Part shown: in pieces, positions 1 through 5,760 of the stretch | How the letters are laid out: each line of letters opens with the position of its first letter | Numbering within the stretch: the first letter of the stretch is position 1 | From: a virus | Lineage: Duplodnaviria > Heunggongvirae > Uroviricota > Caudoviricetes | Reading direction: 5' to 3' (one strand) | Virus record (IMG/VR): IMGVR_UViG_2802429232_000005 | DNA length: 5,910 nucleotides | Made by a program: the position numbers and the translations under genes | Notes under the pieces: generated by a model | The model's input: only the letters and a program-made list of their open reading frames with translations | What the model was told of the DNA's origin: nothing | Databases searched by the model: none

Positions 1-39
1 TTTGACTATGAGGTGATGATATCACCTCTATTCAGGTGG

Positions 40-360
40 CCAAATTCACTATGCCACTACATACAAAAGCCTTTCACACACTCCAGACAAACAACTCAAA
101 CACAACAACGAAAGGAATCGCCCACCTGCCATTACTCCATACACGGAGAAGAACAATCACCAAAACGACGAGAACACCCCATAGAAGAACCACCGCAAAA
201 CGAACGAAACCACATACACCGACAGAGAAAACAACACACCCAATTCACCAACAGAAATAGTCGCCGTATAGAACATTCTGGAAGGAGTGAGCATTAACGC
301 CTATAGAAAGGTTGAGACAGATAAAACACGAAGAAAACACAACATGTATAGCGAAGAAGC
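40..360 (+). other. A+C-rich, T/G-poor compositionally skewed tract; probably non-coding (candidate structured-free RNA or ssDNA spacer)
   Basis: Hand count of 61-240 gives roughly A 48-55%, C about 30%, T 3-12%, G 10-13% on the + strand. The ORFs called here (13..297, 36..260) start at GTG and translate to low-complexity T/Q/H/R/K/P-rich peptides. Confidence 0.5.
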
Positions 361-383
361 CAGGTATGTATAAGTGGGGAGGG

Positions 384-408
384 AAGGAGGGGTGTCGCCT
401 CCTTTTTC
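384..408 (+). terminator. Intrinsic terminator-like hairpin (AAGGAGG / CCTCCTT stem, 7-nt loop) followed by T5
   Basis: AAGGAGG (384-390) pairs with CCTCCTT (398-404); TTTTT run 403-407 directly follows the stem. Confidence 0.55.
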
Positions 409-471: not shown

Positions 472-606
472 CAGGGAAAGGCTGCATCCTGCTACAGAAA
501 CGGCTGGGTTGCCTTCGGGGAACGGCTGGAGGTTTTCAGGGAAACGGTCGAGTTGCCTGTGTGGATTTCGGGAAAAGGCTCGATGCCGGTTCAGGAACGG
601 TGGTGT
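472..606. repeat. Cluster of about six degenerate ~22-bp direct repeats, core GGGAAACGGCTG (iteron-like)
   Basis: cagggaaaggctg (472), cagaaacggctgg (495), ggggaacggctgg (517), cagggaaacggtcg (537), cgggaaaaggctcg (568), caggaacggtggtg (591); spacing about 22-32 bp. No reverse-complement copies, so these are direct repeats, not a long hairpin. Confidence 0.6.
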
Positions 607-785
607 ACCGGTATAGCGAGAGGGAGAGTTGCGGCTGCCCACCTGTAATGTGCGGGAAGAAGAGAGGCGCTCACGTGCAGGCGGACTAACTTACCGCTGG
701 ATTCCCTCTGAATGCCCAGCTACAGCGTAATTGTGCCAGACAGCCAACGGGTCACAATCGATTTCAGTAGGTTTTCGGGGAGATG

Positions 786-917: not shown

Positions 918-957
918 TGCGATAATAACACCATTAAGAAAACATCTTGTTTAAGGA
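918..957 (+). promoter_or_regulatory. Conserved leader module A: extended -10 (TGcGATAAT), AACA-tct-TGTT palindrome, SD AAGGA
   Basis: TGCGATAAT 918-926; palindrome 941-951; AAGGA 953-957, 7 nt before ATG 965. The module recurs upstream of other genes in the array. Confidence 0.5.
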
Positions 958-964
958 TTGCTTT

Positions 965-1294
965 ATGTTTGCAAATATCGACATCAACCAAATTAAGAAA
1001 TTGACTCAAAAAGAGTTTGACCAGTTTTATGAGCTGGAAGGTTGGTCTTCCACTCTGATTAATTCAAGATGGGTGCTGGAACTGATGACTCGTGATGACG
1101 CACCTGCTTTGATGATCAGCGACCTGGGTGAAGATGCTGACTTTATGGATATGAGCGAATTTTGTGTGGACACATACAACCGCAGCCAGAAGTACTACTT
1201 CACATGCGATAGCGAAAATGACGTGATTTCTAAGGTCTATCTTCACCTCGTCCAGCATTGGGACGTTCAGGAGTTTCTTGAGGTATTCGCGTAA
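965..1294 (+). CDS. Hypothetical small acidic protein (109 aa)
   Basis: ATG 965 with SD AAGGA at 7-nt spacing. The ORF track's longer form starts at TTG 947 with no SD. Hand count about 21 D/E vs 8 K/R. Stop TAA 1292-1294, followed by hairpin 1304-1322. Confidence 0.6.
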   Translation: MFANIDINQIKKLTQKEFDQFYELEGWSSTLINSRWVLELMTRDDAPALMISDLGEDADFMDMSEFCVDTYNRSQKYYFTCDSENDVISKVYLHLVQHWDVQEFLEVFA

Positions 1295-1303
1295 TCACAA
1301 CCA

Positions 1304-1322
1304 AAGCCAGCATTGCTGGCTT
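1304..1322 (+). other. GC-rich hairpin AAGCCAGCA / TGCTGGCTT downstream of the 109-aa gene (no clear U-tract)
   Basis: Inverted repeat 1304-1312 / 1314-1322; same AAG-palindrome-CTTAA style as the hairpins at 2926 and 3397. Confidence 0.45.
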
Positions 1323-1391
1323 AACTTAATCTGTAGCCGCAGGGAAGAACCTGCATATCGCTCATGCGCCTGATTAATATGCTTTGTAGCC

Positions 1392-1443
1392 GTTTTCTTA
1401 CTGGTATTATTTACGCCATTGAGAAAACAAGTTGTTTACGGAG
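1392..1443 (+). promoter_or_regulatory. Conserved leader module D: extended -10 (TGgTATTAT), AAACAA-g-TTGTTT palindrome, SD GGAG
   Basis: TGGTATTAT 1392-1400; perfect 6-bp-arm palindrome 1425-1437; GGAG 1440-1443, 5 nt before ATG 1449. Confidence 0.45.
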
Positions 1444-1448
1444 TTGTG

Positions 1449-1760
1449 ATGAAAAAATCATTGGTTCTTGGTCTGGACAAAGACCAGAAGAGAAAAGAGA
1501 AGCCTGCACTGGTTGCTCAATTAACTTTGCTGGATATCGTTGCCAATGGGACCTCTATTCGTCTGTTCCGTGAAACAGCGGTGTCTTTCGATAAAAACAC
1601 CTTTACTCGTTATGTAATGAATGTTCGTCGCCAGCGTGGAAAAGGCTGGGTGGCATTTCAAAGAATGTGGCCGGAACATCAGCTCGAACTGGCTTTGATG
1701 GAAGTTAACCGCGTGGCCCAGCAAGAGATTCAGAGAGCATCAGTGATGGCAATAGCCTGA
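1449..1760 (+). CDS. Hypothetical small basic protein (103 aa); possible nucleic-acid-binding regulator
   Basis: ATG 1449 preceded by GGAG. The ORF-track start TTG 1419 lies inside the palindromic leader and is unlikely. Hand count about 18 K/R vs 10 D/E. Stop TGA 1758-1760, followed by a strong terminator. Confidence 0.55.
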   Translation: MKKSLVLGLDKDQKRKEKPALVAQLTLLDIVANGTSIRLFRETAVSFDKNTFTRYVMNVRRQRGKGWVAFQRMWPEHQLELALMEVNRVAQQEIQRASVMAIA

Positions 1761-1794
1761 TAATGTGCAAGTGGTAATTAGTCGACCGTACGAC

Positions 1795-1822
1795 AGCCCC
1801 GCCATCCTTACGGGGCTTTTTT
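1795..1822 (+). terminator. Rho-independent terminator (AGCCCCG / CGGGGCT stem, 9-nt loop, T6)
   Basis: Stem 1795-1801 / 1811-1817, followed by TTTTTT 1817-1822. Confidence 0.75.
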
Positions 1823-1849
1823 GTATTGTAAGTACATACTTACGATCAT
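1821..1849 (+). promoter_or_regulatory. Putative sigma70 promoter (TTGTAT-N17-GATCAT) with operator-like palindrome GTAAGTA-ca-TACTTAC in the spacer
   Basis: -35-like TTGTAT 1821-1826, -10-like GATCAT 1844-1849; 7-bp-arm palindrome 1828-1843 fills the spacer. Confidence 0.4.
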
Positions 1850-1886
1850 GGAATAGAAAAATAACCAATACACTACGGAGAGTGAA

Positions 1887-2282
1887 ATGACCGTTAAACG
1901 CGAAAAACTGACAGTTGATGTTTACTATGCCTCTGAAACCGCCGAAGGTAAGAATGTGGCAAAAATCACCGTTGTTACGTACAACACCGAAACTGGTGCC
2001 GAAGTCCAGGCCAGTACGATCGTGCGTAAAGGTGATGCCTCCGGCGGCGAGTACGCGACTCAATACCAGTCTATTTTCGATGCAACTGACCCGCTGCTGC
2101 TGAAAATCGAGAACTACTTCCGCCAGGTTGATGAAGAGGTGTTTGAAACCATGATGAATATGGTTAACACCGTATTCGCCTCCAGCCTGAATACCAACAC
2201 TACCTGGATTGGTCAGTACGGCCTGCGCATTACCTCTGGCATTCCTGCCGACACCTTAATCCCTGAAAGCGTATTCGCTTAA
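1887..2282 (+). CDS. Hypothetical protein (131 aa), mildly acidic
   Basis: ATG 1887 with SD GGAG 1877-1880 at 6-nt spacing. Stop TAA 2280-2282, followed by a strong hairpin terminator. Confidence 0.7.
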   Translation: MTVKREKLTVDVYYASETAEGKNVAKITVVTYNTETGAEVQASTIVRKGDASGGEYATQYQSIFDATDPLLLKIENYFRQVDEEVFETMMNMVNTVFASSLNTNTTWIGQYGLRITSGIPADTLIPESVFA

Positions 2283-2291
2283 TCCTCTTTA

Positions 2292-2318
2292 AATGGCGCG
2301 TAAACCGCGCCATTTTAT
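2292..2318 (+). terminator. Rho-independent terminator (AATGGCGCG / CGCGCCATT stem, loop TAAAC, T-rich tail)
   Basis: 9-bp perfect stem 2292-2300 / 2306-2314, followed by TTATTA. Confidence 0.7.
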
Positions 2319-2325
2319 TATGCCC

Positions 2326-2392
2326 GATAACAATTTGTTTTCTGCCTTATCTGATTTGTGAAAATGATTTCACTGAAGCAACTTAATAAGGA
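2326..2392 (+). promoter_or_regulatory. Leader module E: GATAAC, AACAA-t-TTGTT palindrome, shared TGCCTTATCT 10-mer, GTGAAA-atga-TTTCAC palindrome, SD AAGGA
   Basis: Palindromes at 2329-2339 and 2358-2373; TGCCTTATCT 2343-2352 is identical to 3042-3051; AAGGA 2388-2392, 7 nt before ATG 2400. Confidence 0.45.
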
Positions 2393-2399
2393 AACCATC

Positions 2400-2774
2400 A
2401 TGGGACTTGATATCTATATCGAGACGCAGCCTAAAAACGATCTGAATAACGAGGTATCCAGAAAGCAGGTTGCTTACTTCCGTAAGTTCAATGCGCTCGT
2501 TGGGTGGATGGAGCGCAACGTAGGTGAAGTCGAAAATTGTGAGCTTTTAGAATTAACGATGAATGACATTTGCCTTCTGAAAGCTCATTTGATGCACATA
2601 AACGAAAGCAATTGCGAAGAGTACTTGCCTACCCGGGAAGGTTTTTTCTTCGGCAGTCAGGAGTACGACGAAGGTTACTGGCATGATGTGGGGGAGTTGA
2701 AAGAGCTTGTGGAAGATCTGATTAAGAACCACGACTTTCACAATAATAGACTGACCTTCTGCGCCTGGTGGTAA
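2400..2774 (+). CDS. Hypothetical small acidic protein (124 aa)
   Basis: ATG 2400 with SD AAGGA. The ORF-track start GTG 2358 lies inside the operator-like palindrome. Hand count about 23 D/E vs 11 K/R. Stop TAA 2772-2774. Confidence 0.6.
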   Translation: MGLDIYIETQPKNDLNNEVSRKQVAYFRKFNALVGWMERNVGEVENCELLELTMNDICLLKAHLMHINESNCEEYLPTREGFFFGSQEYDEGYWHDVGELKELVEDLIKNHDFHNNRLTFCAWW

Positions 2775-2776
2775 AT

Positions 2777-2920
2777 ATGGGCGATTTCAAGAAACGCCTG
2801 AAGGAGAGAGCCGAGATGGTCAGAAAGCGAAACGCCTCTTCTGTCATCAGATACGCAAGGCAGTTTAGTCGCAACAACAAATCAGTTGAGGAAAAGATCC
2901 TTAGCGTAATCGGGCGATAA
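2777..2920 (+). CDS. Hypothetical very basic small protein (47 aa), possibly translationally coupled to the upstream acidic gene
   Basis: ATG 2777 lies 2 nt after the upstream stop, with GGTGG 5 nt upstream. Hand translation MGDFKKRLKERAEMVRKRNASSVIRYARQFSRNNKSVEEKILSVIGR, stop TAA 2918-2920. Not in the ORF track, presumably below its length cut-off. The stop sits 5 nt before hairpin repeat 2926, the same spacing as stop 3391 to hairpin 3397. Confidence 0.4.
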   Translation: MGDFKKRLKERAEMVRKRNASSVIRYARQFSRNNKSVEEKILSVIGR

Positions 2921-2925
2921 TTATT

Positions 2926-2956
2926 AAGGCCACCAGCATTGGTGGTCTTAAATGAC
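2926..2956 (+). repeat. Hairpin repeat copy 1: AAGGCCACCA-gcat-TGGTGGtCTT + AAATGAC
   Basis: 10-bp stem (one G-T wobble) with 4-nt loop; about 90% identical to the copy at 3397-3428. Confidence 0.6.
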
Positions 2957-3041
2957 TTTTAATAACCGAAGGTTAGTTTGAAACCTGGCTATCAACTTCC
3001 AGAACCTTTCTTGTGTATTCAGCCTGTATTAACTTCTTTTA

Positions 3042-3102
3042 TGCCTTATCTACACTGCGATAATTACACCAACAAGAAAACAACATGTTTACGCAGTGAG
3101 GA
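3042..3102 (+). promoter_or_regulatory. Conserved leader module B: TGCCTTATCT, extended -10 TGcGATAAT, AAACA-aca-TGTTT palindrome, SD GAGGA
   Basis: TGCGATAAT 3056-3064; palindrome 3078-3090 (core AACATGTT is perfect); GAGGA 3098-3102, 7 nt before ATG 3110. Confidence 0.5.
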
Positions 3103-3109
3103 TATGCTC

Positions 3110-3391
3110 ATGACTGATTTCACCATTACCCCTAAAGCACAAAATGTATTTCTTGAATCATGGCTGGACTTGCCGGAAACAGAACAGCAAGAAATGGATC
3201 ATGTGGATTATGACGAGCAGGTAAGCACGCGATTCTTCCACTTTGAGGGATGCGTTTACGACATTGTCGACTTCATGCGAGATGACCGCTTCCCTGAATG
3301 GCACGCAAGCTATCCACTAAACGCCTTTGCCATGCTGATGATCCGTGTGGATGATTCAGGGGATACCATCGACATCGGTCTGCTCCACTAA
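3110..3391 (+). CDS. Hypothetical small, strongly acidic protein (93 aa); DNA-mimic-like composition
   Basis: ATG 3110 with SD GAGGA at 7-nt spacing. In-frame ATG 3104 is too close to the SD, and the track's TTG 2978 start would run through the promoter module. Hand count about 20 D/E vs 5 K/R. Stop TAA 3389-3391. Confidence 0.6.
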   Translation: MTDFTITPKAQNVFLESWLDLPETEQQEMDHVDYDEQVSTRFFHFEGCVYDIVDFMRDDRFPEWHASYPLNAFAMLMIRVDDSGDTIDIGLLH

Positions 3392-3396
3392 AGGCT

Positions 3397-3428
3397 AAGG
3401 CCACCAATGCTGGTGGCCTTAAATGACC
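3397..3428 (+). repeat. Hairpin repeat copy 2: AAGGCCACCA-atgc-TGGTGGCCTT + AAATGACC
   Basis: Perfect 10-bp stem with 4-nt loop, 5 nt after the stop codon; direct repeat of 2926-2956. Confidence 0.6.
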
Positions 3429-3520
3429 ATCCTGTTTCCCTCAGGCTAATAACACCAACCTCTTACCTCCAGGCAACCGACAAACCCACCTGTTCCCGTC
3501 CGGCTACCGCAACTTTCCAC

Positions 3521-3588
3521 TTTGACGCCTTATTCGTACAACGATAATTAATACCAACAAGAAAACAATTTGTTATTTACGATAAGGA
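3521..3588 (+). promoter_or_regulatory. Conserved leader module C: sigma70-like promoter TTTGAC-N16-GATAAT, AACAA-t-TTGTT palindrome, SD AAGGA
   Basis: TTTGAC 3521-3526, GATAAT 3543-3548; palindrome 3564-3574; AAGGA 3584-3588, 7 nt before ATG 3596. Confidence 0.55.
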
Positions 3589-3595
3589 ATTAATC

Positions 3596-4078
3596 ATGAA
3601 TTTTATCGCTACTGTAAACGCACCCGCACATGGCAATATCGCTGTAACGTTCTCTGACATTGAAAAACGAGTACTTGGTGCATGGCGCGACAATGAGACG
3701 GTAGAACTGTCAGCACAAGAAAAATGCATTATTGCACGCGACATCATTGGCAATCGTCGTTACTCGCGGGTATTTGAGAAAGCGTATGTGGTAAATTCTG
3801 GATTCGGAACGTTCGTCTTTCCGGTGCGCTCCGGGCGATTCTGCCAGTCCAAGCTGATTGAGTTCGCTACGCAGATTTCTGTCTGGATTAAAACTCAATC
3901 GTCGTTCAAATTTTCCGACGATGAAGCAGTATCGCAGGGGATGCGGATCGCCAACAATGCGATTAAATGCAAAAACATTACGTATACCGCTGGCGTTGAT
4001 ACATGGAAACTGTTTTGCGCTAACTTTATGCTGAACGTATACGCCAGCAACCGCATCCACATCCTTGATGGCGTGTAA
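3596..4078 (+). CDS. Hypothetical protein (160 aa)
   Basis: ATG 3596 with SD and a near-consensus promoter upstream. Stop TAA 4076-4078, followed by a stable hairpin. Confidence 0.7.
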   Translation: MNFIATVNAPAHGNIAVTFSDIEKRVLGAWRDNETVELSAQEKCIIARDIIGNRRYSRVFEKAYVVNSGFGTFVFPVRSGRFCQSKLIEFATQISVWIKTQSSFKFSDDEAVSQGMRIANNAIKCKNITYTAGVDTWKLFCANFMLNVYASNRIHILDGV

Positions 4079-4080
4079 CT

Positions 4081-4109
4081 GAGAAGAGGGCCAGAAACGG
4101 CCCTTTCTC
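4081..4109 (+). terminator. Stable hairpin (GAGAAGAGGGCC / GGCCCTTTCTC, loop AGAAAC) after the 160-aa gene; weak U-tract
   Basis: About 11-bp stem with a 1-nt bulge; the loop carries the CAGAAACGGC repeat motif; the T-rich tail lies partly inside the stem. Confidence 0.4.
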
Positions 4110-4123
4110 TATAGCCACCAGCT

Positions 4124-4206
4124 GCCGCAGGGAAATTTTCAGAAACGGCAAGGAACGCATTCATGAGCCGACGGGAAACGGCCAGGATTTTTTCGGGAAA
4201 CGGCTG
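4124..4206. repeat. Second cluster of GGGAAACGGC-type direct repeats (4-5 degenerate units)
   Basis: cagggaaa (4129), cagaaacggc (4140), aggaacgc (4151), cgggaaacggcc (4172), cgggaaacggctg (4194). GCCGCAGGGAA at 4124-4134 also occurs at 1336-1346. Confidence 0.55.
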
Positions 4207-4334
4207 CATTCGCCTTTGTGTAGAAAAAAACATCGGGAAGCTGGTGGAATCCAACCAGCGGTTGTCGGACAGGTGAGCGGGGAAAATTATGATGACTTTC
4301 GTCGCCTGAGACATCCAGATTTCTTTCGTAGCAT

Positions 4335-4388
4335 AATCACATACGTGATTAAGTGGTGTGATTATGTGAAAAATCACGCGCACATAAT
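4335..4388. promoter_or_regulatory. Cluster of GTGATT / AATCAC inverted repeats; candidate operator or origin-like site
   Basis: AATCAC-atac-GTGATT at 4335-4350; ATTATGTG (4361-4368) and CACATAAT (4381-4388) form a perfect 8-bp inverted repeat; four GTGATT/AATCAC hexamers in alternating orientation. Confidence 0.35.
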
Positions 4389-4420
4389 ACGCGAGCGGAT
4401 ACGGAACAAAACAAAATGCC

Positions 4421-4448
4421 GATCCGCGCCGACAAATAAACGCGGATC
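4421..4448. other. Perfect 8-bp inverted repeat GATCCGCG / CGCGGATC with 12-nt spacer, containing two GATC sites
   Basis: GATCCGCG 4421-4428 and CGCGGATC 4441-4448. Confidence 0.4.
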
Positions 4449-4618
4449 ATAAAGCAAGACTAAAAGCCAATGATTAACCATACACCATAACGCAATATAA
4501 CGCGTTTTAAGCGCGTTAATGCGCTAAGTAATGGGTATATGCTGGTAAGGATATAAAAGCTCGTCTATGGCGTTATTTTTGCGCTTATTTTTATATTGTT
4601 GGAGTGAGTCAAAGACAA

Positions 4619-4642
4619 TAAAAAAAGCGCCATCATTGGCGC
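4619..4642 (-). terminator. Rho-independent terminator on the minus strand (GCGCCA / TGGCGC stem, then T-run on the minus strand)
   Basis: Stem 4627-4632 / 4637-4642; the A-run at 4619-4626 on + is a U-run after the hairpin on the minus strand. Confidence 0.6.
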
Positions 4643-4666
4643 GTTATGGTGGAAGTATTGGAAACG

Positions 4667-4689
4667 AAAAAAGCGCCCATAGTGGGCGC
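4667..4689 (-). terminator. Rho-independent terminator on the minus strand (GCGCCCA / TGGGCGC stem, loop TAG, T6 on the minus strand)
   Basis: Stem 4673-4679 / 4683-4689 preceded on + by AAAAAA 4667-4672; lies just downstream of the 76-aa gene stop. Confidence 0.7.
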
Positions 4690-4695
4690 TCGATT

Positions 4696-4926
4696 TTATT
4701 TATGTAAACTGATTTCAAATCCCATTTCTACAAACGCTTTTAACATTAAAAATATATCAGCGTCATTCACGTCTGCTTTTTTTCGCTCCTGGTCGCTCAA
4801 TAAGTCAATTTTGCGCGTCGTTTCATCTATAAGCTCGACTGCGCGCCCAGCGTAACCAGCGATCCCAGCGATGCGATTAACAAAATATTCATTGCGCACG
4901 TTAACGCCAGCGATAATCATAAACAT
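4696..4926 (-). CDS. Hypothetical small protein (76 aa)
   Basis: ATG (complement of 4924-4926) with SD AAGGAG (complement of 4934-4939) at 7-nt spacing. Flanked by near-identical terminator hairpins; AT-rich codon usage like the adjacent 216-aa gene. Confidence 0.6.
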   Translation of the reverse strand: MFMIIAGVNVRNEYFVNRIAGIAGYAGRAVELIDETTRKIDLLSDQERKKADVNDADIFLMLKAFVEMGFEISLHK

Positions 4927-4939
4927 GATTAAGCTCCTT

Positions 4940-4960
4940 AAAAGCGCCCATAGTGGGCGC
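4940..4960 (-). terminator. Rho-independent terminator on the minus strand between the 216-aa and 76-aa genes; near-identical to 4667-4689
   Basis: Stem GCGCCCA 4944-4950 / TGGGCGC 4954-4960, loop TAG. On the minus strand it is followed by TTTT and then immediately the AAGGAG SD of the 76-aa gene. Confidence 0.65.
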
Positions 4961-4973
4961 CAGATTCCATTAA

Positions 4974-5624
4974 TTACGCTTTGAAAGCATCAGCCAGATA
5001 GTTATAGAAATCATTTTTAATAAAGCGATATTGCTGCGTACCAGCTTTTGCGCTTCCCATTCCTTTGACTTTCTCAACAAGTCCAAGACGTTCGCAAAGA
5101 TTGATCAACTGGTTGGCTTGAGTATAGCCAGCGTCCAATTTAATTTCGCACGCTTTTTTAGCTTCATTCATTAAATCGAAAACAGCGCCATTAGTGAACG
5201 TGTCGATCTCGTCGTTAATCATATCGATTAAAGCGAATACACGAGATCCTGACATATCAGCGATGGAGTAAACGCATTTACCAGATTTAATTGATTTAAC
5301 CAGATAAACCAGTTTTTCCAGTGAATAACTATTAGTCATTGCATCACGAAAAAATACTTCTGGCGCTTGTTTACTTGCTTTAATCGCATAGTAGAAAACA
5401 GAGCATAATTTTTCATCTTCTACAGCGTTTACAACGTTGTTGATGAAGTAAGCAAGTTTAGTGGTCGCAGCTTGCATATTTGCTTTGTCTGCTTTAGTGT
5501 GCGTACCATTTTTATAATGTTCGTTATATGTTTGAGTTGCCAGATCTGCTTTTTCGCGCAGCTCGTCGGATACAATGGATGCAGCTTCAATGATGGATTT
5601 TTTAGAAATGATAATGTTAGCCAT
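4974..5624 (-). CDS. Hypothetical protein (216 aa), Lys/Ala-rich, AT-rich codon usage; family not recognised
   Basis: ATG (complement of 5622-5624) with SD AAGGA (complement of 5633-5637) at 8-nt spacing; long uninterrupted ORF; terminator directly downstream. Confidence 0.7.
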   Translation of the reverse strand: MANIIISKKSIIEAASIVSDELREKADLATQTYNEHYKNGTHTKADKANMQAATTKLAYFINNVVNAVEDEKLCSVFYYAIKASKQAPEVFFRDAMTNSYSLEKLVYLVKSIKSGKCVYSIADMSGSRVFALIDMINDEIDTFTNGAVFDLMNEAKKACEIKLDAGYTQANQLINLCERLGLVEKVKGMGSAKAGTQQYRFIKNDFYNYLADAFKA

Positions 5625-5760
5625 GATAATATCCTTATGAAAGTTTAAAATTTAACTCAAGAAAGAAAGTGTTTACTCTCGTTCCTGATGCGTTCAATTA
5701 TCGATACGCAAAAAAAGATTGCAAGTATTTTTTTAAATTTTTTGCAGGGACGAAAGTCCT
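5625..5760 (-). promoter_or_regulatory. AT-rich upstream region of the 216-aa gene (promoter not resolved); contains a GGAC-GAAA-GTCC mini-hairpin
   Basis: About 30% GC, A/T runs, position relative to the start codon; GGACGAAAGTCC at about 5749-5760. Confidence 0.3.

Follow-up and report, generated by a model that had tools for sequence, protein, structure and literature searches.

Iteron-flanked replicon modules are known from P1 (oriR-repA-incA) and mini-F (incB-repE-incC), and terminators shield plasmid origins. Sponge RNAs form another group of described systems, in which CrcZ carries A-rich Hfq motifs, CsrB and RsmZ carry GGA motifs, and SroC and AgvB act on GcvB, whose GU-rich seed pairs with C/A-rich targets. 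For Rho-dependent termination, a quantitative description is available: every template tested by Nadiras et al. 2018 that had a C>G bubble longer than 78 bp or an area above 700 %xbp was terminated via Rho in vitro, and the descriptors that discriminate Rho-dependent termination include %C, %CA, %AAC, %ACA and %CAC (PMC6144790). CA-rich motifs also mark Rho-dependent iRAP elements (PMC6847712).

The locus considered here lies at the left end of a 5,910-nucleotide stretch of phage DNA, which was analysed as a whole and is called the window below. A sequence-only reading of the window had drawn attention to an A+C-rich tract in this place. Comparison with relatives identifies the feature as a piece, cut short by an IS, of a non-coding region that is widespread, conserved and undescribed to date; in a limited literature search, no description of the tract region was found, nor of the SSU5 pac/ori. 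The elements of the window on which the argument turns are as follows.

1..61, minus strand: terminal inverted repeat of an IS3-family element, transposase-proximal end, by comparison; the remainder of the IS is left of the window.
62..257, plus strand: tract remnant, the 3' ~200 nt (~196 nt) of a conserved non-coding A+C tract of SSU5-type phage-plasmids, with C in large excess over G.
128..154, plus strand: most conserved repeated box, GCCATTACTCCATACACGGAGAAGAAC, the sole copy left in the window; intact relatives have 4-6 co-oriented copies.
147..213, plus strand: internal direct repeat of 31 nt, copies at 147-177 and 183-213, 71% alike.
258..382, plus strand: purine-rich, poorly conserved spacer between tract and hairpin, partly deleted in the SSU5, Klebsiella and Cronobacter lineages.
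383..408, plus strand: intrinsic-terminator-like hairpin followed by T5, from a terminator scan; stem AAGGAGG/CCTCCTT, 7-10 pairs.
472..615, plus strand: iteron-like array 1, six direct repeats with the core GRAAMGG(CTGG), at 475, 497, 519, 541, 572 and 594.
4091..4218, plus strand: iteron-like array 2, same core, co-oriented, at 4094, 4142, 4175 and 4197.
4377..4691, minus strand: four intrinsic-terminator-like hairpins facing left, which separate array 2 from the leftward genes (4696-5624).

Positions 40-257 hold 45% A, 34% C, 11% G and 10% T (A+C 79%) and constitute the maximal-scoring A+C segment of the window; positions 62-250 likewise come to 79% A+C, and T falls to 3.3% in 181-240. The best 200-nt interval reaches 80% A+C compared with a mean of 51% (sd 6%) across the window. 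The A+C skew is real and far above the chance level, and the recomputed composition agrees with the extreme skew and the T content of 3% in 181-240 reported by the sequence-only reading. That reading had drawn one tract over 40-408, with a hairpin plus T5 at 384-408. The terminator scan recovered the hairpin and its T5, at 383-408, while the extent had to be corrected on both sides: the A+C segment ends at 257, being followed in 258-383 by purine-rich sequence (A 43%, G 29%) that is not A+C-rich, and 40-61 is the end of an insertion sequence. The RNA of 62-260 has a predicted minimum free energy (MFE) of -9.8 kcal/mol for 199 nt, whereas the opposite strand folds to -35.8 kcal/mol via G-U pairs. 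No ATG, GTG or TTG start codon occurs in 62-257, two Shine-Dalgarno-like 4-mers are present in the tract RNA of the window, and the G+C content of the tract is 45%.

The left border of the native sequence was located by alignment. Identity of the window to its relatives starts at base 62, bases 1-61 being absent from all of them, and thousands of unrelated plasmids match 1-61, some of them beside transposases. Exactly the same 61 bases form the end of an element in Yersinia enterocolitica pYV (L038, 1801-1861), whose HTH_Tnp_1 and rve proteins are encoded on the opposite strand. The IS terminus CCACTACA stands at window 54-61 and the inverted repeat ends in ...CA, so that a 5'-TG...CA-3' terminal repeat joined to orfA (HTH_Tnp_1) and orfB (rve), as in the IS3 family, was found for 1-61. 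On this likeness, bases 1-61 belong to an IS3-family element, as its inverted-repeat end; the transposase of that element points away from the tract, and a minus-strand promoter-like site (43->16) is probably the promoter of that transposase. It follows that bases 40-61 of the tract as originally noticed are IS sequence and not native, and the worry about a gene running in from upstream is settled; the proposal that the tract was the 3' UTR of such a gene fails, since the IS3-family transposase reads away from it. The IS/tract junction at 61/62 was common to none of the records or loci examined. As judged from these alignments, an IS3-family element has split the tract in this window, and the last ~200 nt stay joined to the module on the right.

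From base 62 onwards, non-mobilizable E. coli plasmids of ~110 kb share 97-98% identity with the window, as does Escherichia phage Cyrano (pLF82), an SSU5-type phage-plasmid. In Cyrano, pNT1F31 and other relatives, the A+C tract extends ~550 nt further upstream than in the window, and the maximal A+C segments measure 730-850 nt, with 67-73% A+C, across the E. coli, Salmonella SSU5, Enterobacter, Klebsiella and Cronobacter lineages. What had been taken for a unit of ~250 nt thus corresponds, in relatives, to the 3' quarter of a conserved tract of 730-850 nt. In A+C content the tract stands out above every other part of the 108-kb Cyrano genome (0.795 compared with 0.50 +/- 0.045, the next best outside it being 0.645). 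In the same genome 200-nt windows have a mean MFE of -51 +/- 9 kcal/mol and those of the tract -10 to -25 kcal/mol, the two least structured ones both lying in the tract, which together with the MFE of the remnant supports the earlier expectation of an essentially unstructured plus-strand RNA. Over 651 nt the intact tract contains three start codons (ATG, GTG or TTG), as against a genome mean of 35 per 651 nt.

A distant BLAST search with the SSU5 version as query found the tract in at least 859 PLSDB plasmids, the matches falling in Klebsiella (449), Escherichia (224), Enterobacter (91) and Salmonella (49), plus Citrobacter, Cronobacter and others. It is kept at the same place in these at least 859 plasmids of six genera, and nearly all listed records have no feature annotation under it. 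In eight of the eight lineages inspected, the tract starts 2-30 nt past the stop codon of a co-oriented cargo gene, which itself differs by lineage (metG-linked small genes, ivy-linked, SulP-linked or GIY-YIG-linked). The tract always stands between variable cargo genes and a conserved small-ORF block, and fills the left half of an unannotated gap of ~1.5 kb, which reaches to conserved small plus-strand ORFs. Among IMG/VR contigs of the family, a tract of 640-850 nt lies 175-260 nt upstream of array 1 in most loci with enough upstream sequence; a search of genome contigs with a neighbouring protein gave no match. Separate disruptions were also met. At one locus (L042) the disrupting IS end, which we take to be IS2-like by its terminus, also encodes an IS3-family-type transposase C-terminus, and at two others (L096 and L067) the 5' part of the tract is replaced by other genes. 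IS insertions and 5' truncations are tolerated in several plasmids, and, given such independent disruptions in other family members, the tract is dispensable for plasmid maintenance.

It was of interest to establish whether the region codes for protein and whether it is under constraint. ORFs of 74-94 aa overlap the tract in the window, and ORF calls have been deposited inside the intact tract in three records (CYRAN_103, SSU5_108 and the Klebsiella PGAP call AM364_RS30120), while in most records PGAP places no call over it. Most indels that separate the lineages have lengths not divisible by three (5-8 of 5-10 per distant pair), and tract mismatches are without codon-phase bias. Each of the six frames contains 3-14 stops, with one exception, a minus-strand frame of a single Klebsiella plasmid that has 1 stop; the frame that holds the longest open stretch changes from lineage to lineage. 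Taken together, the frame-breaking indels, the lack of codon phase, the stops and the shifting open frames indicate that the deposited tract ORFs are spurious, and the indels, stops and missing codon periodicity bear out the earlier judgement that the overlapping ORFs were unlikely to be real. Comparison of skew with reading frame across homologues, the check proposed at that time, gave the corresponding result, the skew being kept and the reading frame not conserved.

Between Cyrano and SSU5 the part of the tract held by the window is 75% identical and the remaining tract 62-66%, whereas the third codon positions of three neighbouring genes are 36-48% identical, near saturation; conservation of the tract is at the level of the first and second codon positions of its neighbours. 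Variable alignment columns are 63-70% A+C in every lineage and invariant columns 75%, and at long distances no class of substitution is more frequent than A<->C. This maintained composition argues for selection on a single-strand property and not for a mutational footprint, and the alignments indicate that composition and sequence are both under constraint. The conserved pieces include 4-6 co-oriented boxes, (A)CGCCATTACYCMATAYRCGGAGAASAAC, of which the window keeps the one at 128-154, and two or three 31-nt repeats (ACCCACCTCTT…CAGGCTACCG). The boxes are 41-140 bp apart in the tract and are not helically phased. A conserved left block carries several RTCAACG copies together with a weak promoter-like site (TTGACG-N17/18-TATACC), and the first 40-60 nt after it are very C/pyrimidine-rich in all lineages. 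When the left block and the boxes were compared by eye with RfaH ops, lambda boxA, Tus/Ter and P1 parS, no full match was seen, and the covariance models of Rfam 15, run on the window and on intact relatives, returned nothing below E = 0.4 or near a gathering score.

To the right, the hairpin at 383-408 stands ~125 nt after the end of the A+C tract, within a longer conserved hairpin (about 366-415) that is followed by a conserved AT-rich block (about 404-445). A G+C-rich hairpin followed by a T-run, as in intrinsic terminators, is conserved among E. coli-type relatives; the T-run is confined to the E. coli lineage and is lost in the SSU5, Klebsiella and Cronobacter types. Array 1 lies ~215 nt right of the tract, past the hairpin and the AT-rich patch. 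Its spacing of 22, 22, 22, 31 and 22 bp is shared by Cyrano, pDETEC87 and SSU5. In the Enterobacter, Cronobacter and Klebsiella lineages 3-5 cores are left, mostly still 22-bp spaced; shuffles contained 0.1 core sites. Array 2 follows a 160-aa ORF and closes the small-ORF block (947-4078), and it is conserved in SSU5, Klebsiella, Enterobacter and Cronobacter. The arrays therefore have the layout of iteron arrays, with co-oriented direct repeats spaced by about two helical turns and conserved among relatives. Their repeats have in common only an 11-13-nt core, and the iterons of the plasmid RepA differ from them (CTCTCTATAGTGGATA at 21-bp spacing, on both sides of repA). Tandem Repeats Finder misses both arrays, and an RNA structure for array 1 was unsupported (RNAalifold on 41 sequences, -9.6 kcal/mol, only 2 covarying pairs). 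Leftward terminator-like sites numbered 8, compared with 1.0 expected.

Transcription was assessed from published LF82 lysogen transcriptomes (PMC9928086, supplementary table), in which values are log2(FPKM+5) and 2.32 corresponds to an FPKM of 0. CYRAN_102, the gene upstream of the tract, has values of 5.6-9.2. Values are down to 2.3-4.3 for an ORF call spanning the initial 357 nt of the conserved region, with zero reads in LB, and to 2.6-4.7 for a call placed on the repeat array; the first genuine ORF downstream shows an independent rise to 7.8. These values indicate that the tract is essentially without RNA in the lysogen, that transcription coming from the cargo side ends at the start of the region, and that the downstream ORFs have a promoter of their own. 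A discrete transcript, as the sequence-only reading had envisaged, is not what the lysogen displays, FPKM being ~0 over the 5' part of the intact tract next to an expressed upstream gene. No conserved sigma-70 promoter for the tract was found by a simple sigma-70 scan, and no sigma-70 promoter or terminator logic conserved across all lineages was convincing.

The best explanation at present, put forward tentatively, is that the tract acts as a Rho-loading, cis-acting transcriptional insulator, backed by the hairpin, which would keep outside transcription from entering the repeat-bounded module. An RNA polymerase running out of the variable cargo genes on the left, which are expressed in the lysogen, would make a long tract RNA that could not be translated, having no start codons and almost no Shine-Dalgarno-like sequence, and that would stay unfolded because A and C do not pair. 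Naked, C-rich and G-poor, this RNA would be a preferred loading substrate for Rho, which would load and halt transcription within the tract, and the unprotected RNA would be cleared by 3' exonucleases. The hairpin, with its T5 in the E. coli lineage, would serve as a second lock. The object of protection would be the module to the right, where two 22-bp-phased iteron-like arrays lie around six small ORFs and where the other flank would be guarded, in mirror image, by the four leftward-facing terminators.

Computed by the method of Nadiras et al. 2018, the C>G bubble of the intact tract covers 872 positions with an area of 15,758 %xbp, which exceeds every other bubble of the 108-kb genome, on both strands, about threefold; that of the window remnant spans 1-314 with an area of 4,285 %xbp. 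A C>G bubble of at least ~80 nt on the non-template strand, as in rut sites, is accordingly present, and the RNA is predicted to be unstructured and, with no start codons and no conserved ORF, free of ribosomes. YC dimers, on the other hand, are not enriched (29 in 269 nt, about 11%), and a regular-expression search for (YC N9-13)x4 found 0-1 chains, a result of little weight given the simplicity of the pattern. Preference is given to the Rho insulator because the position at the cargo/backbone boundary, the drop of RNA in LF82 and the mirror-image terminator stack go together with the properties under selection. Several points count against it. The ~750 nt exceed what a rut function needs, the sequence constraint (75% versus 36-48%) and the repeated GCCATTAC and 31-nt boxes go beyond rut, and promoter or terminator logic is not conserved in all lineages. 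IS insertions and 5' truncations are tolerated, and the LF82 drop already lies at the very start of the region, so that a need for the bulk of the tract does not follow. Length, conserved boxes and the lack of YC enrichment are thus left unexplained by Rho insulation, and rival readings remain.

One of these, possible but on the unlikely side, places the function at the level of DNA: the tract would be a double- or single-stranded element of the adjacent iteron-like array, in a lytic origin or an incompatibility/control locus. Neither unwound strand would form hairpins, which would suit the loading of a phage helicase, a gp32-like SSB or a recombinase, and the GCCATTAC boxes would be auxiliary binding sites. 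The six-copy array with its exact 22/31-bp phasing ~215 nt right of the tract, the conserved AT-rich block between hairpin and array 1, and the second co-oriented array that closes the ORF block are consistent with this reading, as the layout recalls rep genes flanked by iterons and the arrays are distinct from the iterons of the plasmid RepA. So are the proximity of tract and array in most IMG/VR loci with enough sequence, the silence of the region in the lysogen, and the T4-like UvsW, UvsX/RecA, UvsY, gp32, helicase and primase encoded by the phage-plasmid; the reverse complement of the box (GGGTAATGGC) also matches the iteron core (GGGAAACGGC) at 8/10 positions. However, at 45% G+C the tract is not an easily melted unwinding element, and we know of no unwinding element near its length. 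The boxes, 41-140 bp apart, lack helical phasing, double-strand binding sites would need no A+C-rich spacers, and cumulative GC skew has no inflection at the tract/array region. No initiator-like or Rep-like protein was recognised either, none of the 8 ORFs having a Pfam match and the confident model of the 160-aa protein finding no fold match. An R-loop-forming origin was considered and is not favoured: G-rich RNA favours R-loops, and the C-rich, G-poor tract RNA is the opposite. A more far-reaching form of the same idea, which must be called doubtful, is that SSU5-type phage-plasmids possess a second iteron-bounded module, not described before, as a candidate for a lytic origin or control locus; its ~0.8-kb non-pairing A+C flank would be a new cis element, a conserved lattice staying single-stranded as RNA or unwound DNA and recruiting a factor via the GCCATTAC boxes. 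To our knowledge, an A+C-rich flank of 0.75 kb is not a known part of iteron origins.

The same boxes, repeated and conserved in structure-free RNA, are also the known layout of sponge RNAs, and the tract could be transcribed only in lytic growth or infection as a trans-acting, unstructured decoy for Rho, Hfq, CsrA, an SSB-like protein or GU-rich sRNAs such as GcvB, with the terminator-like hairpin setting the 3' end. This is an improbable reading. Window positions 99-111 (CAAACACAACAAC) form a perfect complement to 13 nt of the R1 seed of GcvB, with a predicted duplex of about -27 kcal/mol, yet GcvB pairing was no better than in dinucleotide shuffles in five of five lineages (fraction of shuffles equal or better 0.51-0.98) and SSU5 does not conserve the 13-mer, so that a GcvB sponge or target mimic was rejected. 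Sponges of the CsrB/RsmZ type for CsrA and of the CrcZ type for the distal face of Hfq were rejected likewise, GGA not being enriched in the tract (z -0.4 to 1.3) nor (ARN)n runs (P(>=observed) 0.05-0.82). The tract has zero expression in the lysogen, no canonical promoter, no Rfam family and no complementary partner elsewhere in the phage-plasmid genome; an antisense immunity leader of the P4/P1/N15 type was also discarded, the 108-kb Cyrano genome offering only chance-level complementary matches of 11-16 nt. A skew without function, either a mutational footprint (for instance of deamination on the opposite strand while single-stranded) or leftover low-complexity sequence, is very improbable. 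Strand-asymmetric mutation does yield A+C-rich and G+T-rich strands, as in vertebrate mitochondrial DNA, and the tract tolerates IS insertion and truncation, but its invariant columns are richer in A+C than its variable ones, it is conserved like codon positions 1 and 2 of neighbours whose third positions are near saturation, and it keeps its place across the plasmids of six genera. Hardly credible is a low-complexity protein, rich in T/P/Q/N/K/H on the plus strand or in G/V/L/F on the minus strand: the overlapping ORFs of the window and the three records with calls in the intact tract speak for it, and the frame-breaking indels, unbiased codon phase, stops, zero reads in LB and the general lack of PGAP calls against it.

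Phage-plasmids of the SSU5/pHCM2/pLF82 type are frequently met in clinical Klebsiella, E. coli, Enterobacter and Salmonella, and resistance genes are among their cargo. The conserved ~1.5-kb non-coding region, made up of the A+C tract, the hairpin, the AT-rich patch and the phased array, marks the cargo/backbone boundary in at least 859 plasmids, and it touches on the question of how lytic or replication modules are silenced beside a freely exchanged, expressed cargo region. A Rho-dependent insulator, if this preferred reading holds, would be a natural, unusually long, portable and cargo-independent one, while membership of the tract in a second origin would locate the lytic origin of the SSU5-type family. 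For annotation, several deposited ORFs within the tract should be treated as spurious.

Most likely, the role of the tract is a variant of a known mechanism. At its left border, the likeness is to IS3-family elements of the IS911/IS2 type, through the ...CA terminal repeat in 1-61, the same as the end of an HTH_Tnp_1/rve element; only the terminal 61 bases are present in the window, and the assignment is at family level. The tract resembles sponge RNAs in being long and non-coding with several co-oriented conserved boxes, and its C/A-rich sequence would pair with GU-rich seeds; it differs from them in having no enriched GGA, ARN runs or GcvB complementarity beyond its composition, in its silence in the lysogen and in having no identified promoter. 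As in iteron-flanked replicons, two co-oriented, ~22-bp-phased arrays bracket genes, with an AT-rich patch beside one of them, although here no Rep-like protein is recognisable and the replication role is putative. The terminators, like those shielding origins on plasmids, face inward-coming transcription on both sides. The tract differs from rut regions in being about ten times their typical length (about 750 versus 60-80 nt), in its sequence conservation across genera, in its repeated boxes and in its YC content, which is not enriched, and its dependence on Rho is putative. Like rut regions such as lambda tR1 and those of untranslated leaders, it is C-rich, G-poor, unstructured, untranslated and downstream of expressed genes, and like C>G bubbles and CA-rich iRAPs it combines an extreme bubble and enriched CA, AAC, ACA and CAC with a fall of RNA abundance at its start.

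The conserved A+C-rich non-coding tract of the SSU5-type phage-plasmids, of which the window keeps 62-257, has been interrupted here by an insertion sequence, and it can be followed in its intact form in another locus of the family (L001). Features in and near the tract, and its disruptions, are as follows.

1-61: terminus of an IS3-family element that has inserted into the tract; its inverted repeat is IS911-like
43->16, minus strand: promoter-like site TTGGCC-16-TATCAT with TG
440-470: two neighbouring CCTNCGG motifs
936-955 (window) and 5682-5697, 5467-5495 and 5704-5726 (L001): repeated box AAGAAAACAA(N)TAAATAACAC and palindrome AAACA-N1-3-TGTTT
L001 5350-5570, outside the window: block at the left boundary of the intact element, highly conserved
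L042 1150-1305: tract disruption, insertion-sequence-like end ...GGGGCAAATCCA

The minus-strand promoter-like site at the window edge is probably the transposase promoter of the IS3-family element, and the junction between this element and the tract was matched in none of the database records examined. The same tract has been broken independently in other family members: in L042 by what looks like an IS2 terminus, and in L096 and L067 (about 11166) by the exchange of its 5' part for other genes.

In the intact element, lineages carrying different cargo genes begin to share homology exactly at the left block. RTCAACG occurs there five times, in both orientations, together with a palindrome, GGATT..AATCC, surrounding TATAAG and a weak promoter-like site (TTGACG-N17/18-TATACC). 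The boxes and AAACA palindromes lie within the intact tract and recur directly 5' of the first downstream ORF; they look like operator sites of one regulator. The deposited ORF calls within the non-coding tract or repeat array (CYRAN_103 and CYRAN_104 of Cyrano; SSU5_108 and SSU5_109; and, in K. pneumoniae, AM364_RS30120) show no conservation between lineages and are probably spurious. As for the CCTNCGG motifs, which in RNA would be UNCG-type tetraloops, their N varies freely among lineages (T, A, G, C), the surrounding stems are just 1-3 bp long and a consensus fold for this region is unsupported.

Downstream, a block of six small ORFs is flanked by two iteron-like arrays, which are accompanied by Chi sites and a terminator-like stack.

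472-615: array 1, direct repeats, core GRAAMGG(CTGG)
796-803 and 4116-4123, minus strand; 4241-4248, plus strand: Chi sites GCTGGTGG
4091-4218: array 2, same core and orientation as array 1
4377-4691 (315 bp), minus strand: four leftward-facing intrinsic-terminator-like hairpins

The hairpins stand between array 2 and leftward genes, and a terminator scan of this interval gave 8 hits against 1.0 expected; the hairpin at 4671-4691 appears bidirectional. Chi sites occur near both arrays, and the one at 796-803 is shared by the lineages of E. coli, Klebsiella and Cronobacter. The Cyrano genome holds 25 of them in 108 kb, far more than expected at random.

Unrelated IMG/VR viral contigs (L043, L087, L048/L051 and L089) also contain 22-bp tandem repeats whose core, GAAA(A/C)GG, is similar, for example GGAAACGGCAGTATTGCCGAAT with its internal palindrome CGGCA/TGCCG, and no A+C tract lies beside these repeats.

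Both arrays are kept across lineages, and the repeats of array 1 are exactly spaced (22, 22, 22, 31 and 22 bp). Together the two arrays may mark a second origin or control locus, and they are unlike the plasmid replicon's RepA iterons.
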